A DNA stretch of 64,000 bases. Origin: Promethearchaeota archaeon. Its GTDB lineage: Archaea; Asgardarchaeota; Heimdallarchaeia; Hodarchaeales; Hodarchaeaceae. The stretch's first letter is position 1, and every line of letters begins with the position of its first letter. Below are positions 53,569 to 63,967 of the stretch, piece by piece. The stretch lies in contig JBHLMN010000015.1 in assembly GCA_048938105.1 (NCBI GenBank), positions 64,001-128,000 on the forward strand, given 5' to 3'. A program made the translations under genes and the position numbers. The notes below the pieces were generated by a model that had not been told where the DNA came from, did not search any database, and saw only the letters and a program-made list of their open reading frames with translations.

Positions 53569-53898
53569 TCACAACTTCCCGCGACAATAAGGACAAGTAT
53601 GGTGTTTGGCAAGCCAACGCAGCATATGATCTTGATGGGCTTTTTGATGACAATGGGGACATTCCATATATGAACTAGCATCTATTCCATAAATATCGAT
53701 TGGTTTCCAACATATCATGCATTTGACAAGTTCAAAAGGATTCCATTCTCCTATGTTTTTGCTGATCAGTTTGATATTAGATGTACTGGAGACAGGAAAT
53801 TTACTTGGAATATGAATACGATTATTATTAGTGCCTTTATCGACAGGGGATGATTGAAGACGAATCTTAGTAGGAAGCTTGAATACCTCAGGGCTCAT
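53569..53898 (-). CDS. RING-finger protein (putative E3 ligase)
   Basis: CMIC...CPHC---AH--H---WL----TCPYCR. Confidence 0.88.
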   Translation of the reverse strand: MSPEVFKLPTKIRLQSSPVDKGTNNNRIHIPSKFPVSSTSNIKLISKNIGEWNPFELVKCMICWKPIDIYGIDASSYMECPHCHQKAHQDHMLRWLAKHHTCPYCRGKL

Positions 53899-54292
53899 TT
53901 TCGGTCACATGATCCTTCAACTGTTCTAAAATATTCGATAGGTCTTCTTTTAAAGCCACCAAGTCAGCTTTTTCTACAAGTAATTGTTTCTTTGAAAAAT
54001 CTCGATTATACTCTTGTTGAGACTCAATTTTCGTTAAGATAACAATGAGATCTGCAAATGTTTCGCTCAGTCCTCCCAGTTTCTTACTGTATTTCGCCAA
54101 TTGCGAATTTATATCCACTAAGGCTTGACGGATTTGGTCCTGAAACTGGTTAATTTGTGAGAGATGATTGTTTAATGAAGCCATTTCCGCATAAACAGTG
54201 TTTATTGTAGTTTCAAGACCTTTAACTGTAGGAATGTCACCTTTAGGAGTTTTAAGGGTCTCAATCTCTACTTTTCGGGGTTCATTGGACAT
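53888..54292 (-). CDS. Coiled-coil protein
   Basis: Long heptad pattern; overlaps the RING gene start. Confidence 0.6.
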   Translation of the reverse strand: MSNEPRKVEIETLKTPKGDIPTVKGLETTINTVYAEMASLNNHLSQINQFQDQIRQALVDINSQLAKYSKKLGGLSETFADLIVILTKIESQQEYNRDFSKKQLLVEKADLVALKEDLSNILEQLKDHVTENEP

Positions 54293-54418
54293 TGTCTTTC
54301 ACATGAATCCTTTTATCTTTTGATTTGATAAATACAATCTAATTAATAAAATTCGTACCCCCAGGGGAAAAATCTTTGTATTTGATATCTGTGTATTTCG
54401 AAGATGTTATAAACGTCT

Positions 54419-55093
54419 ATGTCTAAGAATATCAATCGATACCCTGTATTTAGAGTTTTAATTAACGATGATGCTTTTCTCACGACCCCATATCGAACAA
54501 TCCACAAAAGGATCTATCATCGGATGCAAAGCAGTTTAAAAGACATCTATTCGGTGGTACTATTAGGAACAAGCGGTGTAGGGAAATCTACAATTGCTTT
54601 TTATCTAGAACATGGGTATCCTCCTCCGCGTGATATTAAACCTACGATTGCGTTCGGTATCACTCACGTAGTTATCCAAAAAACCGTGATGGGCTTGATC
54701 GATGTGGGAGGTCAGCGTAAATTCTTGGATATGCGTTATCACGAGCGTTTTGTACGCACTGCAGATGGTATGGTCTTTATTGTTGATAGCTCGAGAAGAA
54801 ATTTCAGATATGATGAGCAATGGTTTGATGACGCTCTACAATTGGTATCGAACCGGGTACCGATTCTTGTAATTGCTAATAAGCAAGATCTTCCAGGTGC
54901 TCTCTCCCCTGAATTCTTGAAAACACATTTCTTTGAAGAATTGCTGAAAAATAATGTCTATAATGTCTTTGGTACTGTGGCTGCCGACCCAGGAGGGATT
55001 AGAAGTGGTGAGAATATCCAGGTGGCTTTTCAGTACCTCATTGACCAAATGAAACTGAATCGTAAGTTTTTGATTAAACAAAGTCAAATCTAA
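54419..55093 (+). CDS. Arf-family-like small GTPase
   Basis: GTSGVGKST, PTIAF, DVGGQ, FIVDS, ANKQDL. Confidence 0.88.
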   Translation: MSKNINRYPVFRVLINDDAFLTTPYRTIHKRIYHRMQSSLKDIYSVVLLGTSGVGKSTIAFYLEHGYPPPRDIKPTIAFGITHVVIQKTVMGLIDVGGQRKFLDMRYHERFVRTADGMVFIVDSSRRNFRYDEQWFDDALQLVSNRVPILVIANKQDLPGALSPEFLKTHFFEELLKNNVYNVFGTVAADPGGIRSGENIQVAFQYLIDQMKLNRKFLIKQSQI

Positions 55094-55115
55094 TCTTAGA
55101 TAATAGAAGAAAAAC

Positions 55116-55922
55116 GTGCGTGGTATTTTGTTCGAGCAAATTACTCGTGTAACCTCAGGTGTTCCTTATTTAGATGCATTAACCTCAGGTGGTTTTATCA
55201 AGGGGACAACCAATCTGGTAATTGGTCCTGCAGGGGCTGGTAAAACCATTTTTGGCTTACATTTTCTACATGAGGGTGCACGACGGAATGAAAATGGCCT
55301 ATTGGTAGCTATGCAAGAACCCCCTTGGGCTATTCGTCGGGATGCAAGTTCTTTCTCCTTTTTTGACCATAACTTCTTTGCTGAACCAGAGAAAATTGTT
55401 ATGCTTGATTTTACTCCCTCGGGTTGGGAATTATGGGATCCCGATAGTTTAACATATACTGAAGAGTCTGAACTGATGTTAGAGGCGGAGGGGGTTCCCT
55501 ATAACGAAACCTCTCTACCTACTTTTCTTCATAAAGTGTTCTATCACATTAGTCAAGTGGTAGAAGAAAAAAAGATAGAACGTATTGTTATAGATCCCTT
55601 GGCAGCATTTCAGTTCTATGACTATGGAAATGACTTTGGATTCCTTAGAAAACTTACAACAGGATTTTTAACAAATATTTCAGCATTGAATGTTACTACT
55701 CTTGCTATATCCGAGGTTTCAGGTGGCATGGAGCATTCACTTTTCGGAGAAGAATATATTGCGGATTCTATTATTCATTTAGATACACTTTCAGTTAGAG
55801 GTGAAATGATTCGTATCTTAAGAATTGGGAAGATGCGAGCGACCAATCATACTAAACAAACGTTACGGTTTGAAATCAATCATCATGGAATCACTTTTCT
55901 TGATTCTGAAGACACAGATTGA
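55116..55922 (+). CDS. Single-domain KaiC/RAD55-like ATPase
   Basis: SGVPYLD, GPAGAGKT, RIVID, EEYIAD, KMRAT-H. Confidence 0.85.
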   Translation: MRGILFEQITRVTSGVPYLDALTSGGFIKGTTNLVIGPAGAGKTIFGLHFLHEGARRNENGLLVAMQEPPWAIRRDASSFSFFDHNFFAEPEKIVMLDFTPSGWELWDPDSLTYTEESELMLEAEGVPYNETSLPTFLHKVFYHISQVVEEKKIERIVIDPLAAFQFYDYGNDFGFLRKLTTGFLTNISALNVTTLAISEVSGGMEHSLFGEEYIADSIIHLDTLSVRGEMIRILRIGKMRATNHTKQTLRFEINHHGITFLDSEDTD

Positions 55923-56079
55923 GCTATTAACAGTATAATTCTGTTTTAAACAATTTTATAAAAGTATCACAATCCTCGATACAGAAAATCGTTGAAGAAC
56001 AGAAGGGATAAAAGATTTGGGTTCCCCATTCAATATATTTTAAAAGAGGAACTTATATGGGGTAGATCAAGTAGATCAA

Positions 56080-56334
56080 ATGAAGGAATTCATGATGCAG
56101 ATAAATGTAGTTCAAGCTATTGGAGGCGGGGAGATCACAATGACTTGTGATAAGACAGATTCGGTTGCTGCTATCAAAGAAAGAGTAGCCCAACAAAAAA
56201 GGATACCAGCTAGATCGGTCATCCTCGTATTTCAGGGAAAACAACTCGATGAAAGTGAGACCCTAAAGTCTGCTGGGATCGAAGATATGGATAAGTTATA
56301 TATGATCACACGAACTACAGGTGGCTCAACCTAA
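56080..56334 (+). CDS. Eukaryote-like ubiquitin precursor (GG plus ST extension)
   Basis: D-V--IKE-V------IP...LVFQGKQL---ETL---GI...RTTGG. Confidence 0.92.
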   Translation: MKEFMMQINVVQAIGGGEITMTCDKTDSVAAIKERVAQQKRIPARSVILVFQGKQLDESETLKSAGIEDMDKLYMITRTTGGST

Positions 56335-56434
56335 CCTAAAATTCCGTTCCCAAGATAGAACTTCGTAACTGACTTCGTAAATCCAGTGAAGCACTTTTAA
56401 ATTCTTTAGCTGGGATGGTGGTTGGGATTGTCAT

Positions 56435-57430
56435 ATGAGTGAGCGGTATAATCGTCAACTTTTGATAGAACACTGGGATCAGAAAAAAATCCAGCAAAGT
56501 ACCGTGACATTGGTTGGGCTAGGAGCATTGGGGAGTGTGGCTGGTACATCATTAGCAATGGCAGGAGTAGGAACACTCATTCTAGTTGATTTAGACACCA
56601 TCGAATTGAGTAACCTGAATAGACAATTGCTTTTTCGGGCTGCAGATATAGGAAAACCGAAGGTTAAAGTCTGTGCAAACGTATTACAGGAAATTAATCC
56701 AGACGTTAATGTTATTACGTTATACATGCCTATTGAAAAGGCTCCACGCCATGTCCTAGAAACTTCGAGTGTCATCCTTGATGGTTTAGACACATTTCAA
56801 GCTCGTCGATGGGTAAACTCATTTGCAGTAGGGGCAAACATTCCTTTGATCTCTGGAGGGATGTATAGCTTTCTAGGAAATCTTCAAGTTGTTGTCCCCC
56901 AAAAAACTCCCTGTTTAGAATGCCAGTCACTAATTCCTGAAGAAGAGCTTCAAAAAGCCTGTACACCATTTGGAGAAGTGAGAAAAGAAACTCGACCTGC
57001 TGAAAACGAAAACGAATACATTCCATACGTTTCTAGTGTATCTTTTGTCATAGGGGGTCTTATGGCTCAAGAGGCTTTAAAAATCATTCTTGGATTACCC
57101 CCCTTGAAAGAGTATCTGTTTTGGGATGGAAAGACCGAGTTGTTCACATCGGTACCTCTTGAACGTCGTGAAGATTGTATTGTTTGTTCACCACGTTACC
57201 AGTTGCAAGCTATTCCTATTCGTTCTCCTATTGACCAACAACTAGGAGATTTTATAGCTCAACTACGATACTCATTCAATCTGAGTTCTGAAATGGCATT
57301 GTTGTTTCAAACTCAGAGATTAACTGCCTCTGAAGAAAAGATAGGAAGTATCTTTCAATCAGGAGCTATTTTCAGGGTTGTTGATCCCACATTATCTACT
57401 CCCCTAAAATTCGTGATTAATATAGACTGA
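56435..57430 (+). CDS. Ubiquitin-activating enzyme E1-like (ThiF domain plus C-terminal beta-grasp-like domain)
   Basis: RYNRQ, GLGALG, D-DTIELSNLNRQ, CLEC, ACT putative catalytic Cys, CIVC. Confidence 0.9.
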   Translation: MSERYNRQLLIEHWDQKKIQQSTVTLVGLGALGSVAGTSLAMAGVGTLILVDLDTIELSNLNRQLLFRAADIGKPKVKVCANVLQEINPDVNVITLYMPIEKAPRHVLETSSVILDGLDTFQARRWVNSFAVGANIPLISGGMYSFLGNLQVVVPQKTPCLECQSLIPEEELQKACTPFGEVRKETRPAENENEYIPYVSSVSFVIGGLMAQEALKIILGLPPLKEYLFWDGKTELFTSVPLERREDCIVCSPRYQLQAIPIRSPIDQQLGDFIAQLRYSFNLSSEMALLFQTQRLTASEEKIGSIFQSGAIFRVVDPTLSTPLKFVINID

Positions 57431-57486
57431 AATCTGTGATTTAATCAACAGGTAATTGGTACAATTCTGTATCTTTTTTCTTCACG

Positions 57487-58239
57487 TTAAATAAAGTTTG
57501 GTAATAAAAAAAGAACAATGTAGACAAGGGTGAGGATACCACTAATGCCATATGAATAATATTCGTTGAGTAAATGAGCTGTACGAATACCATTTCCACA
57601 ATGATAAGCAACGAGGCCCAAAAAGGGGATGTAAAGGAGTTCAAATATAGCATAATTAGTCCAAGTTGTAGTAGTAATGGTTGCACTTTCTAATCCTGGT
57701 CCCAAAAAGGCAATTAAAATGCTGATTATTATTGAAGCAGGAATGAGAGGACCAAGTGAGTAGCCAACAATTCCTTGTGTATCCCGAAAACTAGCTTTTC
57801 CTCCAAGGGTTTTTGCTATTAGCCAAACAATAAGACTACTAATGAGCCACCCGAATATCGCTAGGATAATAAAGGCTATAGCAACAATCCAAGGAGCAAT
57901 CACGAAATATAAGAAGTGCCAATCATGCCAAGATGTATCTGCACCTTTAAAAAAGAATGCACTTAATCGAAAACCATATGCTACAGAAACAAAATATAGT
58001 ACAATTATGGCGCCAAAACGATCAGGGTTGACTCCAATCTCATTAAAAAGGCGTTTACTTTCTCTGGGGTCGAATAAACTTCGCCAAATTCGTAAAAACT
58101 TCTCTCTAATCGTGACACGAACTCGTTCTCTTGCCCGAACAATTTTTGTTAAGTCGAAGCCACAATAAGGGCAGAGAATGTAACCTGCTGGACTTCTTTC
58201 ACTACAATTGGGACAGACGAGGGATTCAGACTCAGACAT
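57487..58239 (-). CDS. Yip1-family membrane protein with N-terminal zinc ribbon
   Basis: CPNC...CPYCG; five TMs with AK-LGGKASF-D---IVGYSL-P. Confidence 0.82.
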   Translation of the reverse strand: MSESESLVCPNCSERSPAGYILCPYCGFDLTKIVRARERVRVTIREKFLRIWRSLFDPRESKRLFNEIGVNPDRFGAIIVLYFVSVAYGFRLSAFFFKGADTSWHDWHFLYFVIAPWIVAIAFIILAIFGWLISSLIVWLIAKTLGGKASFRDTQGIVGYSLGPLIPASIIISILIAFLGPGLESATITTTTWTNYAIFELLYIPFLGLVAYHCGNGIRTAHLLNEYYSYGISGILTLVYIVLFLLPNFI

Positions 58240-58448
58240 ATGTTTTCTCTCACGGAAGAGTTTTATCTTCGTGGTTCTCTACGCTTAAATTACTTTTCAC
58301 ACAGTTATTCTTAACTATTTTCTTTTGGATTCTCATTTCTATTAGATAAATTCTAAAACCCTTCGGAAGTCATTCAACCAACTGAGAAGTTTCATTATTA
58401 AAGGATCCCTCCCATTAATTATTCTTAGTTTATTTTCTTTAGGACATA

Positions 58449-59444
58449 TTACTCGACTGAAAAGGAGGAAGTCTGGTCTAATGAGAGTTTCTCTTCAATG
58501 AATTTAAACAACCACGGGACGCAAAAAATACCGAAAAACGACAAAATCGCATATCGTAAAAATCGTGCAATTAGATAAAGAGGAAATTCTTTGAAAAGCA
58601 TTCCAGCTATAGCACTCGAGCCAAAATATATGATAAAAATAATTATGAGGCCTAAAACAGCACGATAGATAAGTATTTTCTTATTTGATCTGACTTCTTT
58701 CACTTTCAGATTGATATAACGACTTTCAAGTATATAACCAGTTGATAAACCTAGAAGTAATCCTGCATATGAACTGGTGTCAGCAAGTTCAAAATCATGA
58801 CCCATTAAAACAGTGATTAAATATGACATTACTACTGCTATTATAGGAGCTATTACTGCAATTATAAAAAGAAAGGAAGGAGAAGAATTCGCAATAAATT
58901 GTTCTATTTTAGGTAAGAGGATGATATAGAGCAGTGCAATTAATATTCCGAACAATACACCAACAATTACATCTGTCGGCCAATGGACACCAAGGTAAAT
59001 TCGGGAAAGAGGAACCATAACTATCATGAAGACACTTATTATCCAAAGACCAAGGCAGCGCCAACGGGTTGCTAAAAATGTCCAAAACGACCCTACACTT
59101 GATGAATGTCCACTTGGAAATGTATAATCTGTTGGAAGTTGGCCTAGTATATCCTTGATCCCTTTTATTTCAGTTTTATTCAATCTATCATATTCAAGAT
59201 AAGGTCTTTCAAGACCAAAAAAGCCTTTTATTGTGTATGTGATGATAGCAGTAAAAATTGCTAAAAAAGCAACATGGATAGCCAGTTTTTTATCAATACA
59301 GAAGAAAAGTACAATAATTATTCCAACGACAAAGAGTTTATCGCCAAAAAGAGTGATGAATCCAAAAATAAGATCAAGATATGGACTGAAAGTTTGTAGG
59401 AAAATTATTATTTGATCATCTAAAGAACCAAGTGATTCACCCAT
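58449..59444 (-). CDS. PAP2-family lipid phosphate phosphatase
   Basis: K------RP, FPSGHS, SRIYLGVHWPTD; multi-TM; ATG at 59444 preferred. Confidence 0.9.
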   Translation of the reverse strand: MGESLGSLDDQIIIFLQTFSPYLDLIFGFITLFGDKLFVVGIIIVLFFCIDKKLAIHVAFLAIFTAIITYTIKGFFGLERPYLEYDRLNKTEIKGIKDILGQLPTDYTFPSGHSSSVGSFWTFLATRWRCLGLWIISVFMIVMVPLSRIYLGVHWPTDVIVGVLFGILIALLYIILLPKIEQFIANSSPSFLFIIAVIAPIIAVVMSYLITVLMGHDFELADTSSYAGLLLGLSTGYILESRYINLKVKEVRSNKKILIYRAVLGLIIIFIIYFGSSAIAGMLFKEFPLYLIARFLRYAILSFFGIFCVPWLFKFIEEKLSLDQTSSFSVE

Positions 59445-59661
59445 TTTTTTCCTTCCAAGAGTAATGTCAAGTTTAGAGAGAAGACAGGAAATCATCTTAC
59501 TTATTAAAGTTTTAGTTTCTTTTTAAAGATTGGATAAAACACAACTTCATAATTATAGACTAGCCTTTAAAGAGGGTGAAGGGTCATATCTTTATTAGTG
59601 AGGAATTAAAAAACCGAATGTTTGTTAAAAATTTTTCAGAGAATATCGGAAGGCCAACCCA

Positions 59662-60885
59662 TTGGAAGATAATAATAAGTCTTCACAATCCAAAAAATCG
59701 AAGGAAGAGAAATCTCTGGAAGAAAAGGTTCTTGATGAAGCCAGATCCGATGAAATGGAAGAATTCTACCATAAAGTTCAAGTAGACCTTGAAAAAGCAA
59801 CATCGGGGCGCAGTGATTATCTAACGATTTTGGAAGAAGCTTATGCACAAGCTGAAAGAACCGAGAAAGATTACATCGAAGACTTTAGACGGTTTGGTTT
59901 AGAAAGAGCGGAAAAAACAGAAGATATATACTTGATTTCCTGTTTTATGAGAAATGGACAACCATTGTTTGATTATCCTCTGTCTAAGAAGATTAATCTG
60001 CAAGAATCTTTAAGCTTTATTTTGAACACTATAACAAACTATGTCCAATACAAACTAGGAGAATTACTTGAAGTTCTTACCCTTGAATCCCAAACCATTC
60101 ATTTTTTCGTGATTGAACAGATCATTATTGCAATTGTTACTTCAAAATTTATCCCCCGAGATAAAATCTATATGTTAGCTATTCAAATCGGACAAATTAT
60201 AAATCAATATCCGAATAAAAATCCTCAAAACAGTCCAGATTTACGTATTGATCTAGATAATGCGATTACAACAGCTAAATCAACACTTGTTCAGGAACAT
60301 CACACTTTGAAGGTAATCCTGATTGGTGATGGCGCTGTAGGGAAAACTTCAATAAGAAGGCGCTATCTTGGAGAAGGGTTTCAGATTGATTATCAAATGA
60401 CTATAGGGGCAGATCTAGCTGCTAAAACATCTGATATAGTCTATACTGGCGGTAAACAGATAAAATACCTAATCTGGGATCTCGCTGGCCAACCCCGCTT
60501 TACTAATGTGAGAAAAATCTATTACATGTCTGCGGTAGGAGCCCTGGTTGTCTTCGATATCACACGTCCTGAGAGTTATCAGAATATTGTGAAATGGATG
60601 AATGAGCTCTGGCGCAATAACGGACGTGGCCCAGTACCATTAATTGTATTAGCTAACAAAACAGATTTATGCAAGGCTGGTTTACCCTGTGTTTCTAAAG
60701 AAAAAATACAGGCTTTTGTATCTCGTTTGTCACAAATTTCAGAGAAATACCGCGGTTTCAAGATATACTTTCTTCCAACAAGTGCAAAAACAGGCCAAAA
60801 TATAGAACAAGCATTTGAGCTGTTAGGTGAGTCTATCGTTGACTTTTTATCTTCTGTGAAAGTCTCTGGAGGAAAAAAATCGTAA
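59662..60885 (+). CDS. Longin-like domain fused to Rab-like small GTPase
   Basis: YLISCFMRNGQPLFD longin-like start; GDGAVGKTS, Y--TIG, WDLAGQ, NKTD, TSAK. Confidence 0.88.
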   Translation: MEDNNKSSQSKKSKEEKSLEEKVLDEARSDEMEEFYHKVQVDLEKATSGRSDYLTILEEAYAQAERTEKDYIEDFRRFGLERAEKTEDIYLISCFMRNGQPLFDYPLSKKINLQESLSFILNTITNYVQYKLGELLEVLTLESQTIHFFVIEQIIIAIVTSKFIPRDKIYMLAIQIGQIINQYPNKNPQNSPDLRIDLDNAITTAKSTLVQEHHTLKVILIGDGAVGKTSIRRRYLGEGFQIDYQMTIGADLAAKTSDIVYTGGKQIKYLIWDLAGQPRFTNVRKIYYMSAVGALVVFDITRPESYQNIVKWMNELWRNNGRGPVPLIVLANKTDLCKAGLPCVSKEKIQAFVSRLSQISEKYRGFKIYFLPTSAKTGQNIEQAFELLGESIVDFLSSVKVSGGKKS

Positions 60886-61193: not shown

Positions 61194-61970
61194 ATGTTTA
61201 AGCCTACAATTCAAAGAAAGGAGCCAGAAAAAAAAATGGATAGAGATTTTATTTTAGCACGAGAGGCACAGCTGGTTTATTCTAATTCCGCAGCCTCAGG
61301 ATTCAATCCTGTAGGAGAATCCTTAGCTCGATGGCAAGGGACATTAACTTATACAACCAGTAGGGGTCGAAACATGTTCACTTTCGAGATTTTTTTACCA
61401 GAATATTTTCCAAATGTCCCCCCCGTGGTTACAGCAGTTGGCTACATGGATCACCCAAACATCGATGAGGATAGCTTTATCCAATTACGAATCCTAGATA
61501 ATTGGCGTGCGGAGTTTCATCTATATCAAGTGATTATAGCATTAAAGAACCTTATGTCTAGGGTGCCTCCAACTCCCAAAGGTGAGGCTGCTAAGACAGT
61601 TCGCGAGACAGTCGCCCGTTTAACAGAAACACCCCCAGTAGCCGAACCTCAGACAACCTCCGCAGAAACCACAGCCTTGAGAACAGAGATATCTTCTTTG
61701 ACACATAAAATGCAGGAAAAAGATGAGGAATTAGCCCGATTACGCGCACAGCAAATGGTTCAAGTACAATCCTCTCAAAGAGATGAACATTTAAGCCTTT
61801 CAGCTCAAGATAACCTCGAATCAGAACGTATTGCCCTCTCAGAATTATTAGCATCACTTGAAGATCGCTATGCAGCTGGAGAGATTTCAATTTTCGAATA
61901 TTCACGTTTATATAAAAAATATACAAAAGAACTCTATACAATTCGAAAACAATTAAGTTATTTGGGATAG
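61194..61970 (+). CDS. vps23: ESCRT-I Vps23/TSG101-like protein (UEV, coiled coil, steadiness box)
   Basis: E2 fold with HPNID but Gln in place of the catalytic Cys; coiled coil; LASLEDRY--GEIS--EY hairpin. Confidence 0.88.
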   Translation: MFKPTIQRKEPEKKMDRDFILAREAQLVYSNSAASGFNPVGESLARWQGTLTYTTSRGRNMFTFEIFLPEYFPNVPPVVTAVGYMDHPNIDEDSFIQLRILDNWRAEFHLYQVIIALKNLMSRVPPTPKGEAAKTVRETVARLTETPPVAEPQTTSAETTALRTEISSLTHKMQEKDEELARLRAQQMVQVQSSQRDEHLSLSAQDNLESERIALSELLASLEDRYAAGEISIFEYSRLYKKYTKELYTIRKQLSYLG

Positions 61971-61980
61971 GATAAACTTC

Positions 61981-62601
61981 ATGACTTTTCCTCCAAATTT
62001 AGCAAAGCGTTGGGAATTGGAAGGGCATCTATATGCAAGTATTGGGACTCTTGACTTATTATCTCGAACTTTTGAGCGAGGTGAGTTAGATCCGAATATT
62101 TTCCATAAACAACACAAGAATCTCTTATCAACAATTGTCGCGATTCGAGCAAAGTTAGAGAACTATAATTTTGACTTGGATGACTTCATTCAAACTGAAC
62201 AGATCCAAAAATTATTCCCTTATGGTCTTGAAAAACTCCATAAGACTGAGGGTACAGATGAATCTCCTGGAAATCGCATTGATTATAGCCAAATTAAAAA
62301 ACTCCCCAGTATTGCTGCCGAATTCGTAGCTAATGCTATTGAATTACTAGATCTTCTTCGTTTAGAAGCCATTGCAACTGTAGACCGAGTTTTACCTTAT
62401 TTAGATGAGCTTTATGCAATCCTAATCAAATCTCATGTATATGGAGCTGACCATTGGGTAACCCAAGATATTAATGAGTGGATAAGATGGATGGACAGAC
62501 AAAAACCAGGCCAACTCTTAAAGCAAGACGAACTACGAAAGTTAGAATTGCAAGCTGCAAGATGGTTATCTGATTTTCGACGAGAATTGAGTAATCTTTA
62601 A
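61981..62601 (+). CDS. vps28: ESCRT-I Vps28
   Basis: LYASI-TLD-L---F--G, FV-----LD-LRL, L------R-L---------F. Confidence 0.9.
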   Translation: MTFPPNLAKRWELEGHLYASIGTLDLLSRTFERGELDPNIFHKQHKNLLSTIVAIRAKLENYNFDLDDFIQTEQIQKLFPYGLEKLHKTEGTDESPGNRIDYSQIKKLPSIAAEFVANAIELLDLLRLEAIATVDRVLPYLDELYAILIKSHVYGADHWVTQDINEWIRWMDRQKPGQLLKQDELRKLELQAARWLSDFRRELSNL

Positions 62602-62617: not shown

Positions 62618-63967
62618 TTAAGTGAAAAGATTAGTTTTCCCTGTTCGAACAAGCAATTCAGTAATTGCATCATTTATTTTAGCAAGCTCTAATTCGAATT
62701 GCTTGATTAACTCGAAATAATCTCGACTTGATACTTTTTTTCTGCCTTCTTTGAGTTCCTGTAATGCCTTTTCGTTTGCTAATTTTCGTAACCGTAGATC
62801 GCGTAGGCGGTCGTCTAGAACTCCTGTTACAAAATCAGGTTCCCTTTCTTGATCGGAAGTTGACTCAGTCGTTCCCTTTGTATTTCCAATTATATTTGAA
62901 TTAAAATTAAGAGCTGATAGGATTTTTTCCTGATAAATTTCGGAAGACCAATCTCGGAAAGGTTCATGGACATATATATCACTGGGACGTCCGTAATAAC
63001 TAAGTTGGAGTGCATCAAATATTCGCATTAGGGTTTGACAATCAGCTCGTAGTTCATAATCATGTTTAATGGTTGTTATTTGAAGCTTATCTCGTTTAAG
63101 AAATCCAACGCTTGTTTTTTGAACATCAATCAGATCTTCAGGTGGAAATTCATCATTTACAACAATTTTGCGAGCTAGGATATTATGTCTTTTTTTACTA
63201 AGTATAACAATTCTATCAGTTGTGATTACTAAATCAATAGAACTTTTTCTAATACCACCATTTGGTAATCCAATATTTGGGAAAAAACCAATAGCTAATT
63301 CCCCAGGTACAAAAACAAAGACATCAAAGCACCGTCCAAGATGTCGTGCCATCTCTTCAAACTGATCGCACTGATTTTCTATATCCTCAATTAGATCATG
63401 AATCGGTTGAAGTTTATCATGGACCGTTTGATCGAAACTGGTAATTTGCTTCTGGAAAAGACTAAGTTGAAGCGAAAGATTACGATAATCAGTAAAAGAG
63501 GAGTCTAATCCCATTAAACTGCGATAGAGTCGATTTAATTTCGAAGCATATTCTTGAAATTCTGATAAGGTAAAATTTTCGATTTTTTTGGTGTCAAGAA
63601 AGATTTTATCGATCTGATTTCCTGGGATTAAAAACTGTTTTCTAAAAGATCGTAGTCTAGATTCAAGATGCCCCGTACGTTTAAGTACGATTACTGGACG
63701 ATAAGCTACTTGTTTAAGCGAGCGCTTCAACTCAAAAATATGTTCCAAAGTTTCAGTTTTCAAGTTTTGTGAAGGAGAACCCATTTCTACGTTCATTGAA
63801 CCACAAGGACATTTAAACTGGGCATCATCGGTCTGTAGTTGAGAAGCGCACTTGGAACAGAATGCTGCACCGCAATCATAACACTTTTGGGAATCTAATT
63901 CGCGAATCATGGTGCCACAAAACGAACAATAAAAGCTTGACATCCCGGAAGGCATCTTGAGCACCAC
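62618..63967 (-). CDS. FYVE-like zinc finger, coiled coil, PH-like domain and steadiness-box-like hairpin protein
   Basis: 8-Cys CxxC/CxxC/CxxC/CxC finger; LVITTDRIVI PH-like strands; C-terminal LANEKALQEL-----KVS--DYFEL-KQF. Confidence 0.7.
   Translation of the reverse strand: MVLKMPSGMSSFYCSFCGTMIRELDSQKCYDCGAAFCSKCASQLQTDDAQFKCPCGSMNVEMGSPSQNLKTETLEHIFELKRSLKQVAYRPVIVLKRTGHLESRLRSFRKQFLIPGNQIDKIFLDTKKIENFTLSEFQEYASKLNRLYRSLMGLDSSFTDYRNLSLQLSLFQKQITSFDQTVHDKLQPIHDLIEDIENQCDQFEEMARHLGRCFDVFVFVPGELAIGFFPNIGLPNGGIRKSSIDLVITTDRIVILSKKRHNILARKIVVNDEFPPEDLIDVQKTSVGFLKRDKLQITTIKHDYELRADCQTLMRIFDALQLSYYGRPSDIYVHEPFRDWSSEIYQEKILSALNFNSNIIGNTKGTTESTSDQEREPDFVTGVLDDRLRDLRLRKLANEKALQELKEGRKKVSSRDYFELIKQFELELAKINDAITELLVRTGKTNLFT

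Follow-up and report, generated by a model that had tools for sequence, protein, structure and literature searches.

We analysed a 64,000-nucleotide (nt) stretch of DNA from a Promethearchaeota archaeon of the order Hodarchaeales (assembly GCA_048938105.1, contig JBHLMN010000015.1, positions 64,001 to 128,000 of the forward strand), hereafter the window, in which positions are counted from the first letter. [quoted passage not shown] Its translation, homologues and profile matches identify it as the predicted Hodarchaeales ortholog of Znr_CC_PH_SB (also Znr_PH_CC_SB; asCOG cog.011556), an Asgard-specific family (Makarova, Tobiasson, Wolf & Koonin 2024, mBio, PMC10936438), of which it is a divergent, zinc-reduced member.

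The ORF was present in 19 of 20 genomes of the same genus. A total of 52 close homologues (52–93% identity) were found without stops; they all come from metagenomes of Hodarchaeales/Heimdallarchaeia and lack any Pfam annotation. Because of these stop-free homologues and the synteny kept at 12 of 12 genus loci, the ORF is a real gene, well beyond chance. When the 449-aa protein was searched directly, no Pfam match above cut-off and no significant match in a PDB sequence search were obtained, and its isolated PH and hairpin pieces gave zero Pfam matches. Comparisons were made with three alignments: A1, a genus alignment of 28 sequences including the window protein (24 of them full-length); A2, a wider Hodarchaeales alignment of the same protein; and A3, an alignment of seven proteins of about 500 aa that combine three zinc ribbons with a coiled coil, a PH domain and a steadiness box, drawn from other Asgard families and containing no Hodarchaeales.

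Predicted domain architecture

AlphaFold2 was run on the whole protein with the A1 alignment (predicted local distance difference test, pLDDT, 78) and on residues 66–345 with a wider alignment (pLDDT 85.8, predicted template modelling score 0.75). Together with fold searches, the models confirmed four modules: a zinc finger with eight cysteines at the N-terminus, then a three-helix bundle and a PH/GRAM-type domain, and a helical hairpin at the C-terminus.

The N-terminal zinc module (residues 11–60; 63788..63937, minus strand) was delimited by cysteine conservation and by alignment with three-zinc relatives. Its eight cysteines (C14, C17, C29, C32, C37, C40, C53 and C55) are kept in 22–24 of the 24 full-length relatives from the genus and in almost all of the distant ones. 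The finger as a whole is less conserved in A1 than the helical, PH and C-terminal parts. An earlier note on this DNA had called the finger FYVE-like. The eight cysteines that it described are present, and their spacing, C-x2-C-x11-C-x2-C-G-x2-F-C-x2-C, does match that of the FYVE fingers of Hrs/Vps27 and EEA1 around the core C-x2-C-G-x2-F-C-x2-C; the phosphatidylinositol 3-phosphate (PI3P) patch is absent, as the note had also said. The spacing is not diagnostic, however, and membership of FYVE (PF01363) was rejected: the score was 13.7 bits against a cut-off of 27.8, the PI3P-binding WxxD, R(R/K)HHCR and RVC motifs are lacking, and RING-like and B-box-like models score equally. One relative reached 21.9 bits on Pfam FYVE, and the FYVE, FYVE_2, RING, B-box-like and zinc-ribbon models of Pfam all stayed below threshold in the window protein and its relatives. 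The module is probably a cross-brace with two zinc sites. This topology fits the pattern of cysteine loss in the LC_3 (Heimdallarchaeota) relative, which is missing pair 2 together with one half (C55) of pair 4 and retains pairs 1 and 3.

The following region (residues 69–212; 63332..63763, minus strand) had been described as a coiled coil of about 130 aa. Its helical nature was upheld, but AlphaFold2 models it as an antiparallel three-helix bundle rather than a long two-stranded coil. The predicted helices span residues 69–106, 116–151 and 161–212 (144–147 aa), and the last one would continue into the PH domain.

The PH/GRAM-type domain (residues 220–326; 62990..63310, minus strand) was recognised by VIA-align and by conservation of basic residues. 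In the models it is a beta sandwich of seven strands capped by a C-terminal helix (225–325). Its top VIA-align match was the PH-GRAM domain of MTMR2 (Z 13.0, root-mean-square deviation (rmsd) 2.6 Å, 108 residues aligned), which bears out the PH/GRAM-like beta domain proposed earlier; further PH domains, including those of Bcr, TAPP1, Exo84, Sec3 and Lam6, followed below it. The conserved basic residues are R240, K241, R252, K259, R260, K284, K291 and R292. Relatives gave weak Pfam matches to bPH_3, GRAM and Vps36 GLUE. With Vps36 GLUE and the PH-GRAM domains of myotubularins and Lam/GRAMD proteins the domain shares the PH-fold beta sandwich, the strand motif L-x-[IL]-T-T-x-R-[IL] and associated zinc fingers. 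It does not qualify as a Vps36 GLUE domain: the PH domain of the window protein is continuous, its zinc fingers are N-terminal and not inserted, it carries no EAP30 winged helices, and EAP30/Vps22 is encoded by a separate nearby gene. Vps36 GLUE was absent from the top 50 structural matches, and its weak Pfam match (0.017) came from one relative only.

A linker (residues 358–377; 62837..62896, minus strand) with pLDDT below 50 and variable alignment columns separates the PH domain from the hairpin. It is modelled as disordered and is poorly conserved. The C-terminal hairpin (residues 378–442; 62642..62836, minus strand), which we assign to the Vps23-type steadiness boxes from the models and from profile comparison, consists of two predicted helices at 378–407 and 415–442.

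Membership in the Znr_CC_PH_SB family

The published Znr_CC_PH_SB architecture comprises three zinc ribbons, a coiled coil, a PH domain and a steadiness box; Makarova et al. regarded these proteins as a likely ESCRT-I component and expected the PH domain to be membrane associated (PMC10936438). Hatano et al. (2022, PMC9192718) refer to the same proteins by the name 'steadiness box protein'. RING, CC and PH are named among the domains of Asgard ESCRT-I-like proteins in the legend of their Supplementary Figure 8, and a Thorarchaeota member, ThorAB25_08990|SB, was used in their yeast two-hybrid assays. By eye, the sequence printed for this member shows the architecture of the family and contains a stretch of 15 residues identical to one in the A3 protein L019. 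The earlier note had proposed an undescribed subunit; with the same architecture and the same inference already in print, that part of it fell. The idea of an extra membrane-binding ESCRT-I subunit is thus not new, having been published in 2024 and partly anticipated in 2022.

A profile built from the genus alone had zero matches beyond Hodarchaeales, either among 1.84 billion representatives or in 399 Asgard genomes. The A2 profile reached proteins of about 500 aa from other Asgard families (E-values down to 6e-22), whose sequences contain six CxxC pairs, helical and PH-like regions, a linker rich in proline and a hairpin resembling that of Vps23. Alignment of A1 with A3 by hhalign ran end to end over 418 columns (99.1% probability, E-value 1.2e-18), and the A3 profile found the window gene at an E-value of 2.7e-14. 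The same profile matched a member of about 470–510 aa in each other family of the class (1/1, 31/31, 3/3, 12/12 and 12/12 genomes), as well as proteins of 620–740 aa in 39 of the 41 genomes of a further family, f20 (E-values down to 4e-68); A2 compared with a 668-aa member of f20 gave 96.7% and an E-value of 3.6e-10. These matches place the Hodarchaeales proteins in the family as divergent members.

Family f20 is presumed to be Lokiarchaeia because its gene order matches that of the Lokiarchaeum exemplar. In the accessible part of Table S2 of PMC10936438, the cog.011556 exemplar of Lokiarchaeum GC14_75 stands in the order L35Ae, family gene, MetE, Vps20-type Snf7. Two f20 loci together reproduce this order, with L35Ae upstream in L036, MetE downstream in L035 and a convergent Snf7 gene in both.

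The three N-terminal zinc ribbons of the published architecture were not found in the window protein, which has four cysteine pairs (two zinc sites). In the alignment with three-zinc relatives, the middle two of their six CxxC pairs are deleted in the Hodarchaeales proteins. As the pairs that remain line up with those of the relatives in each column, we read the two-zinc form as a reduced variant of the three-ribbon module that has probably lost its middle ribbon. The window protein otherwise shares with the family the succession of modules (zinc, helical, PH, linker, steadiness box), profile homology over the full length, restriction to Asgard archaea, a position beside ESCRT genes and the same proposed role as a membrane-binding ESCRT-I subunit. 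It differs in its length (449 aa versus about 470–510 aa in other Heimdallarchaeia and 620–740 aa in f20), in a short linker that is not proline-rich whereas that of relatives is longer and often proline-rich, in its strongly diverged sequence and in the position of its gene, which lies between vps28 and vps22 and not beside a Vps20-type ESCRT-III gene. The LC_3 (Hodarchaeota) homologue carries no ESCRT flag in the accessible part of Table S2 (PMC10936438), and as far as that part of the table extends, the Hodarchaeales branch may be missing from the catalogue. A role in ESCRT-I is a reasonable prediction for the window protein.

Other proteins with a related C-terminal end were also seen in f20. 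Some of them match the steadiness-box end of the profile alone (E-values of about 1e-4), and ORFs of about 414 aa of this kind occur in many f20 genomes. One 670-aa protein (L020:4903-6915) has a Lys-rich repetitive N-terminus and helical repeats together with a match to the steadiness-box end. Such matches suggest that f20 genomes may encode further, different steadiness-box-bearing proteins.

Steadiness-box identity of the C-terminal hairpin

The earlier note had likened the C-terminal hairpin to the steadiness box of the neighbouring Vps23, and the two strings that it quoted were located, one in the 62618..63967 ORF and the other in the 61194..61970 ORF. Profile-profile comparison agreed with this likeness. 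A family-wide profile of the hairpin (A9) matched a steadiness-box profile (A8) made for the family of the neighbouring Vps23 over 61 ungapped columns (93.0% probability, E-value 3.4e-7). The A3 member L017 matched Pfam Vps23_core with an E-value of 5.3e-6, exactly at the gathering score, and the matching segment aligns with residues ~397–440 of the window protein; the hairpin is also aligned inside the full-length match between A1 and A3. The yeast Vps23 headpiece chains 2P22, 2F66 and 2CAZ were among the top PDB sequence matches (E-values 0.06–0.3), where they stood amid unrelated coiled coils and are suggestive. Judged by these profiles, the hairpin is a Vps23-type steadiness box.

Genomic context

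Together with the 14 kb of contig that follow it, the window holds a complete ubiquitin-ESCRT locus. In order of position it includes genes for a RING finger protein (53569-53898), an Arf-like GTPase (54419-55093), a KaiC-like ATPase (55116-55922), ubiquitin (56080-56334), an E1/ThiF protein (56435-57430), a zinc-ribbon-Yip1 membrane protein (57487-58239, minus strand), a PAP2 lipid phosphatase (58449-59495, minus strand) and a Rab/Ras-like GTPase (59662-60885, plus strand; Pfam Ras 5.6e-38 at residues 217–392). A Vps23-like gene follows (61194..61970, plus strand), whose product has a UEV/E2-variant domain (Pfam UQ_con 8e-13, UEV 0.006), a stalk and a steadiness box. Nearly all of its orthologs are 244 aa long and start with MDRDF, and one carries Pfam Vps23_core; by this comparison, the true start is probably the second methionine, M15, at 61236. 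The next gene is vps28 (61981..62601, plus strand; Pfam VPS28 1.2e-11).

The vps28 and Znr_CC_PH_SB genes are convergent, as had been claimed, and a gap of 16 nt separates their 3' ends (62601 and 62618). The 3' ends of the same two genes overlap by 8 nt in a distant relative (L025:6387-6394). From the short gap here and the overlap in the relative, it follows that the termination signals of this convergent pair must be shared or overlapping.

Past the Znr_CC_PH_SB gene and beyond the window come the genes for Vps22/EAP30, two Snf7 proteins, Vps4 and Vps25, in that order, and the gene is therefore placed between vps23-vps28 and vps22-snf7-snf7-vps4-vps25. The linkage to ESCRT genes, which the earlier note had proposed to check in relatives, proved to be conserved: the vps23-vps28/Znr_CC_PH_SB layout recurs at 12 of 12 genus loci, and also on two distant Hodarchaeales contigs where the protein copies are only 32% and 23% identical. 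At 11 of the 12 genus loci, vps22 is the divergent upstream neighbour, with an intergenic region of about 300 nt in common. In the LC_3-like clade, about 7 kb separate the gene from vps22 and it does not adjoin vps28; relatives in other families adjoin Vps4, Snf7, Vps25 or Vps28 genes.

Proposed role and alternative explanations

We regard it as moderately likely that the window protein is a modular adaptor whose hairpin joins the Vps23/Vps28 headpiece, whose PH domain binds the membrane and whose finger contacts a protein. The hairpin would pack with its steadiness-box counterparts in the neighbouring Vps23 and Vps28 to form an ESCRT-I-like headpiece, in which the protein would occupy the place of eukaryotic Vps37. 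The three-helix bundle would pack against the PH/GRAM-type domain, followed by a flexible linker before the hairpin, and the conserved basic surface of the PH domain (R240, K241, R252, R260, K291 and R292) would anchor the complex on the membrane, with membrane anchoring of an early ESCRT complex as a proposed point in common with Vps36 GLUE. The zinc finger may provide an extra protein contact, for example with ubiquitin, the Vps28 C-terminal domain or ESCRT-II. Every physical interaction of the protein, and its lipid binding, is something that we infer. Yeast two-hybrid signals reported for other members of the family suggest that Vps28 may be bound by the steadiness box proteins of Loki and Thor, and that Vps22 is bound by that of Loki (PMC9192718). 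According to Hatano et al. (PMC9192718), no homologue of Vps37 was found in Asgard archaea. Like Vps37, the window protein is a non-UEV protein proposed to give a helical hairpin to the Vps23/Vps28 headpiece; it differs in having no stalk helix and no Mod_r match, and in carrying zinc and PH modules that Vps37 lacks.

Several points weigh against this role. The AlphaFold2 model shows no stalk helix like that of Vps37 or Vps23, and what precedes the hairpin is a disordered linker. The hairpin-to-hairpin comparison is weak when limited to Hodarchaeales (20%, E-value 1e-3), and for the window protein itself we infer the binding to Vps23 and Vps28. The conserved basic residues of the PH domain differ from the canonical beta1-beta2 phosphoinositide motif, and the lipids of archaea are unlike those of eukaryotes. 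In f20, the gene adjoins an ESCRT-III gene and not vps23 or vps28. Finally, Odinarchaeal ESCRT-I has been reconstituted from two Vps23 and one Vps28 with no third protein (PMC9192718).

The main rival is a role like that of CdvA, the membrane-proximal adaptor upstream of ESCRT-III in TACK archaea, which we think unlikely. Here the protein would stay out of the ESCRT-I headpiece and act as a membrane anchor, recruiting ESCRT-II (Vps22) or Vps20-type ESCRT-III directly, in parallel to Vps23-Vps28, with its hairpin acting like the TACK CdvA hairpin. The family gene is convergent with or beside a Snf7/Vps20-type gene in f20 and some other families (L035, L036, L015 and L022), and the divergent arrangement with vps22 described above favours a link to ESCRT-II, as does the two-hybrid interaction of the Loki steadiness-box protein with Vps22 (Hatano et al., PMC9192718); the tightest neighbour in Hodarchaeales, however, is vps28, from which it is separated by the 16-nt gap and with which it overlaps in one relative. 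The steadiness box resembles the CdvA hairpin by HHpred (Makarova et al., PMC10936438) and one relative has a weak Pfam CdvA match (0.0098), but the hairpin is closer to Vps23_core than to CdvA, and it matches the box of the neighbouring Vps23 at 93%. CdvA also has a PRC-barrel and an ESCRT-III-binding C-terminal peptide, and neither a zinc finger nor a PH domain; the window protein is without a winged-helix-binding peptide of the CdvA type.

The adaptor role also allows an evolutionary extension, which we offer as quite doubtful. [quoted passage not shown] Hodarchaeales are the Asgard group placed closest to eukaryotes.

Much less probable is a reading of the helical bundle and PH domain as a DH-PH-like regulator or effector of the Rab-like and Arf-like GTPases of the locus, which would couple GTPase state to ESCRT recruitment. 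RhoGEF tandems do top both Foldseek lists (E-values 1e-5 to 8e-8) and reach Z 11–12.4 in VIA-align, and at 4 of 10 other-family loci (L015, L018, L021 and L024), as well as in the window, a gene for a Rab-like GTPase is found no more than a few kb from the family gene. The superposition is poor (template modelling score 0.3–0.38, rmsd 10–20 Å), however, and the VIA-align scores are no higher than those of PH-only matches, so that the helical part adds nothing; three helices stand against a DH fold of roughly six, and there is no sequence match to Pfam RhoGEF. The RhoGEF reading was set aside because of this poor superposition, the likeness being read as a shared arrangement in which a long helix runs into a PH domain. 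We likewise give little credence to the zinc module being a RING/B-box-type E3 domain by which the protein ubiquitylates ESCRT-I (e.g. the Vps23 steadiness box) instead of forming a structural subunit: the module was labelled 'RING' by Hatano et al. (PMC9192718), shows sub-threshold Pfam RING and B-box matches in the window protein and relatives, and a 2023 preprint describes an E1/E2/RING E3 cascade that ubiquitylates the steadiness box of Asgard Vps23, but no zinc-finger model reaches its cut-off, the finger is all-Cys, the locus encodes a separate RING protein, one of the two zinc sites is lost in the LC_3 relative, and no part of the protein is less conserved than the zinc module.

To our knowledge, Asgard archaea have no Vps37, no full-length Vps36 and no ESCRT-0, and the Znr_CC_PH_SB family is the standing candidate for the completion and membrane recruitment of Asgard ESCRT-I. 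The Hodarchaeales version is its shortest and simplest form, encoded directly between vps28 and vps22 in the lineage nearest to eukaryotes, which makes it a convenient construct for reconstitution and liposome binding; the value of the present assignment lies in annotation and choice of construct and not in discovery.

Other observations at the locus

The set of genes from RING to PAP2 (53569-59495) recurs on the contig of a distant relative (L025), with copies that are about 30–55% identical. The Rab/Ras-like GTPase (59662-60885) has an N-terminal extension of about 205 aa without a Pfam match. Just past the right end of the window (contig 128150-130487, L013:2151-4488), two ORFs lie between the Znr_CC_PH_SB gene and vps22. 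One encodes a 197-aa multi-pass membrane protein without a Pfam match, and the other is a TnpB-like gene (OrfB_IS605 and Cas12f1-like TNB). The 197-aa ORF is unmatched in the 11 of 12 related genomes where vps22 directly adjoins the Znr_CC_PH_SB gene, and the arrangement looks like the recent insertion of a mobile element into the ESCRT locus.

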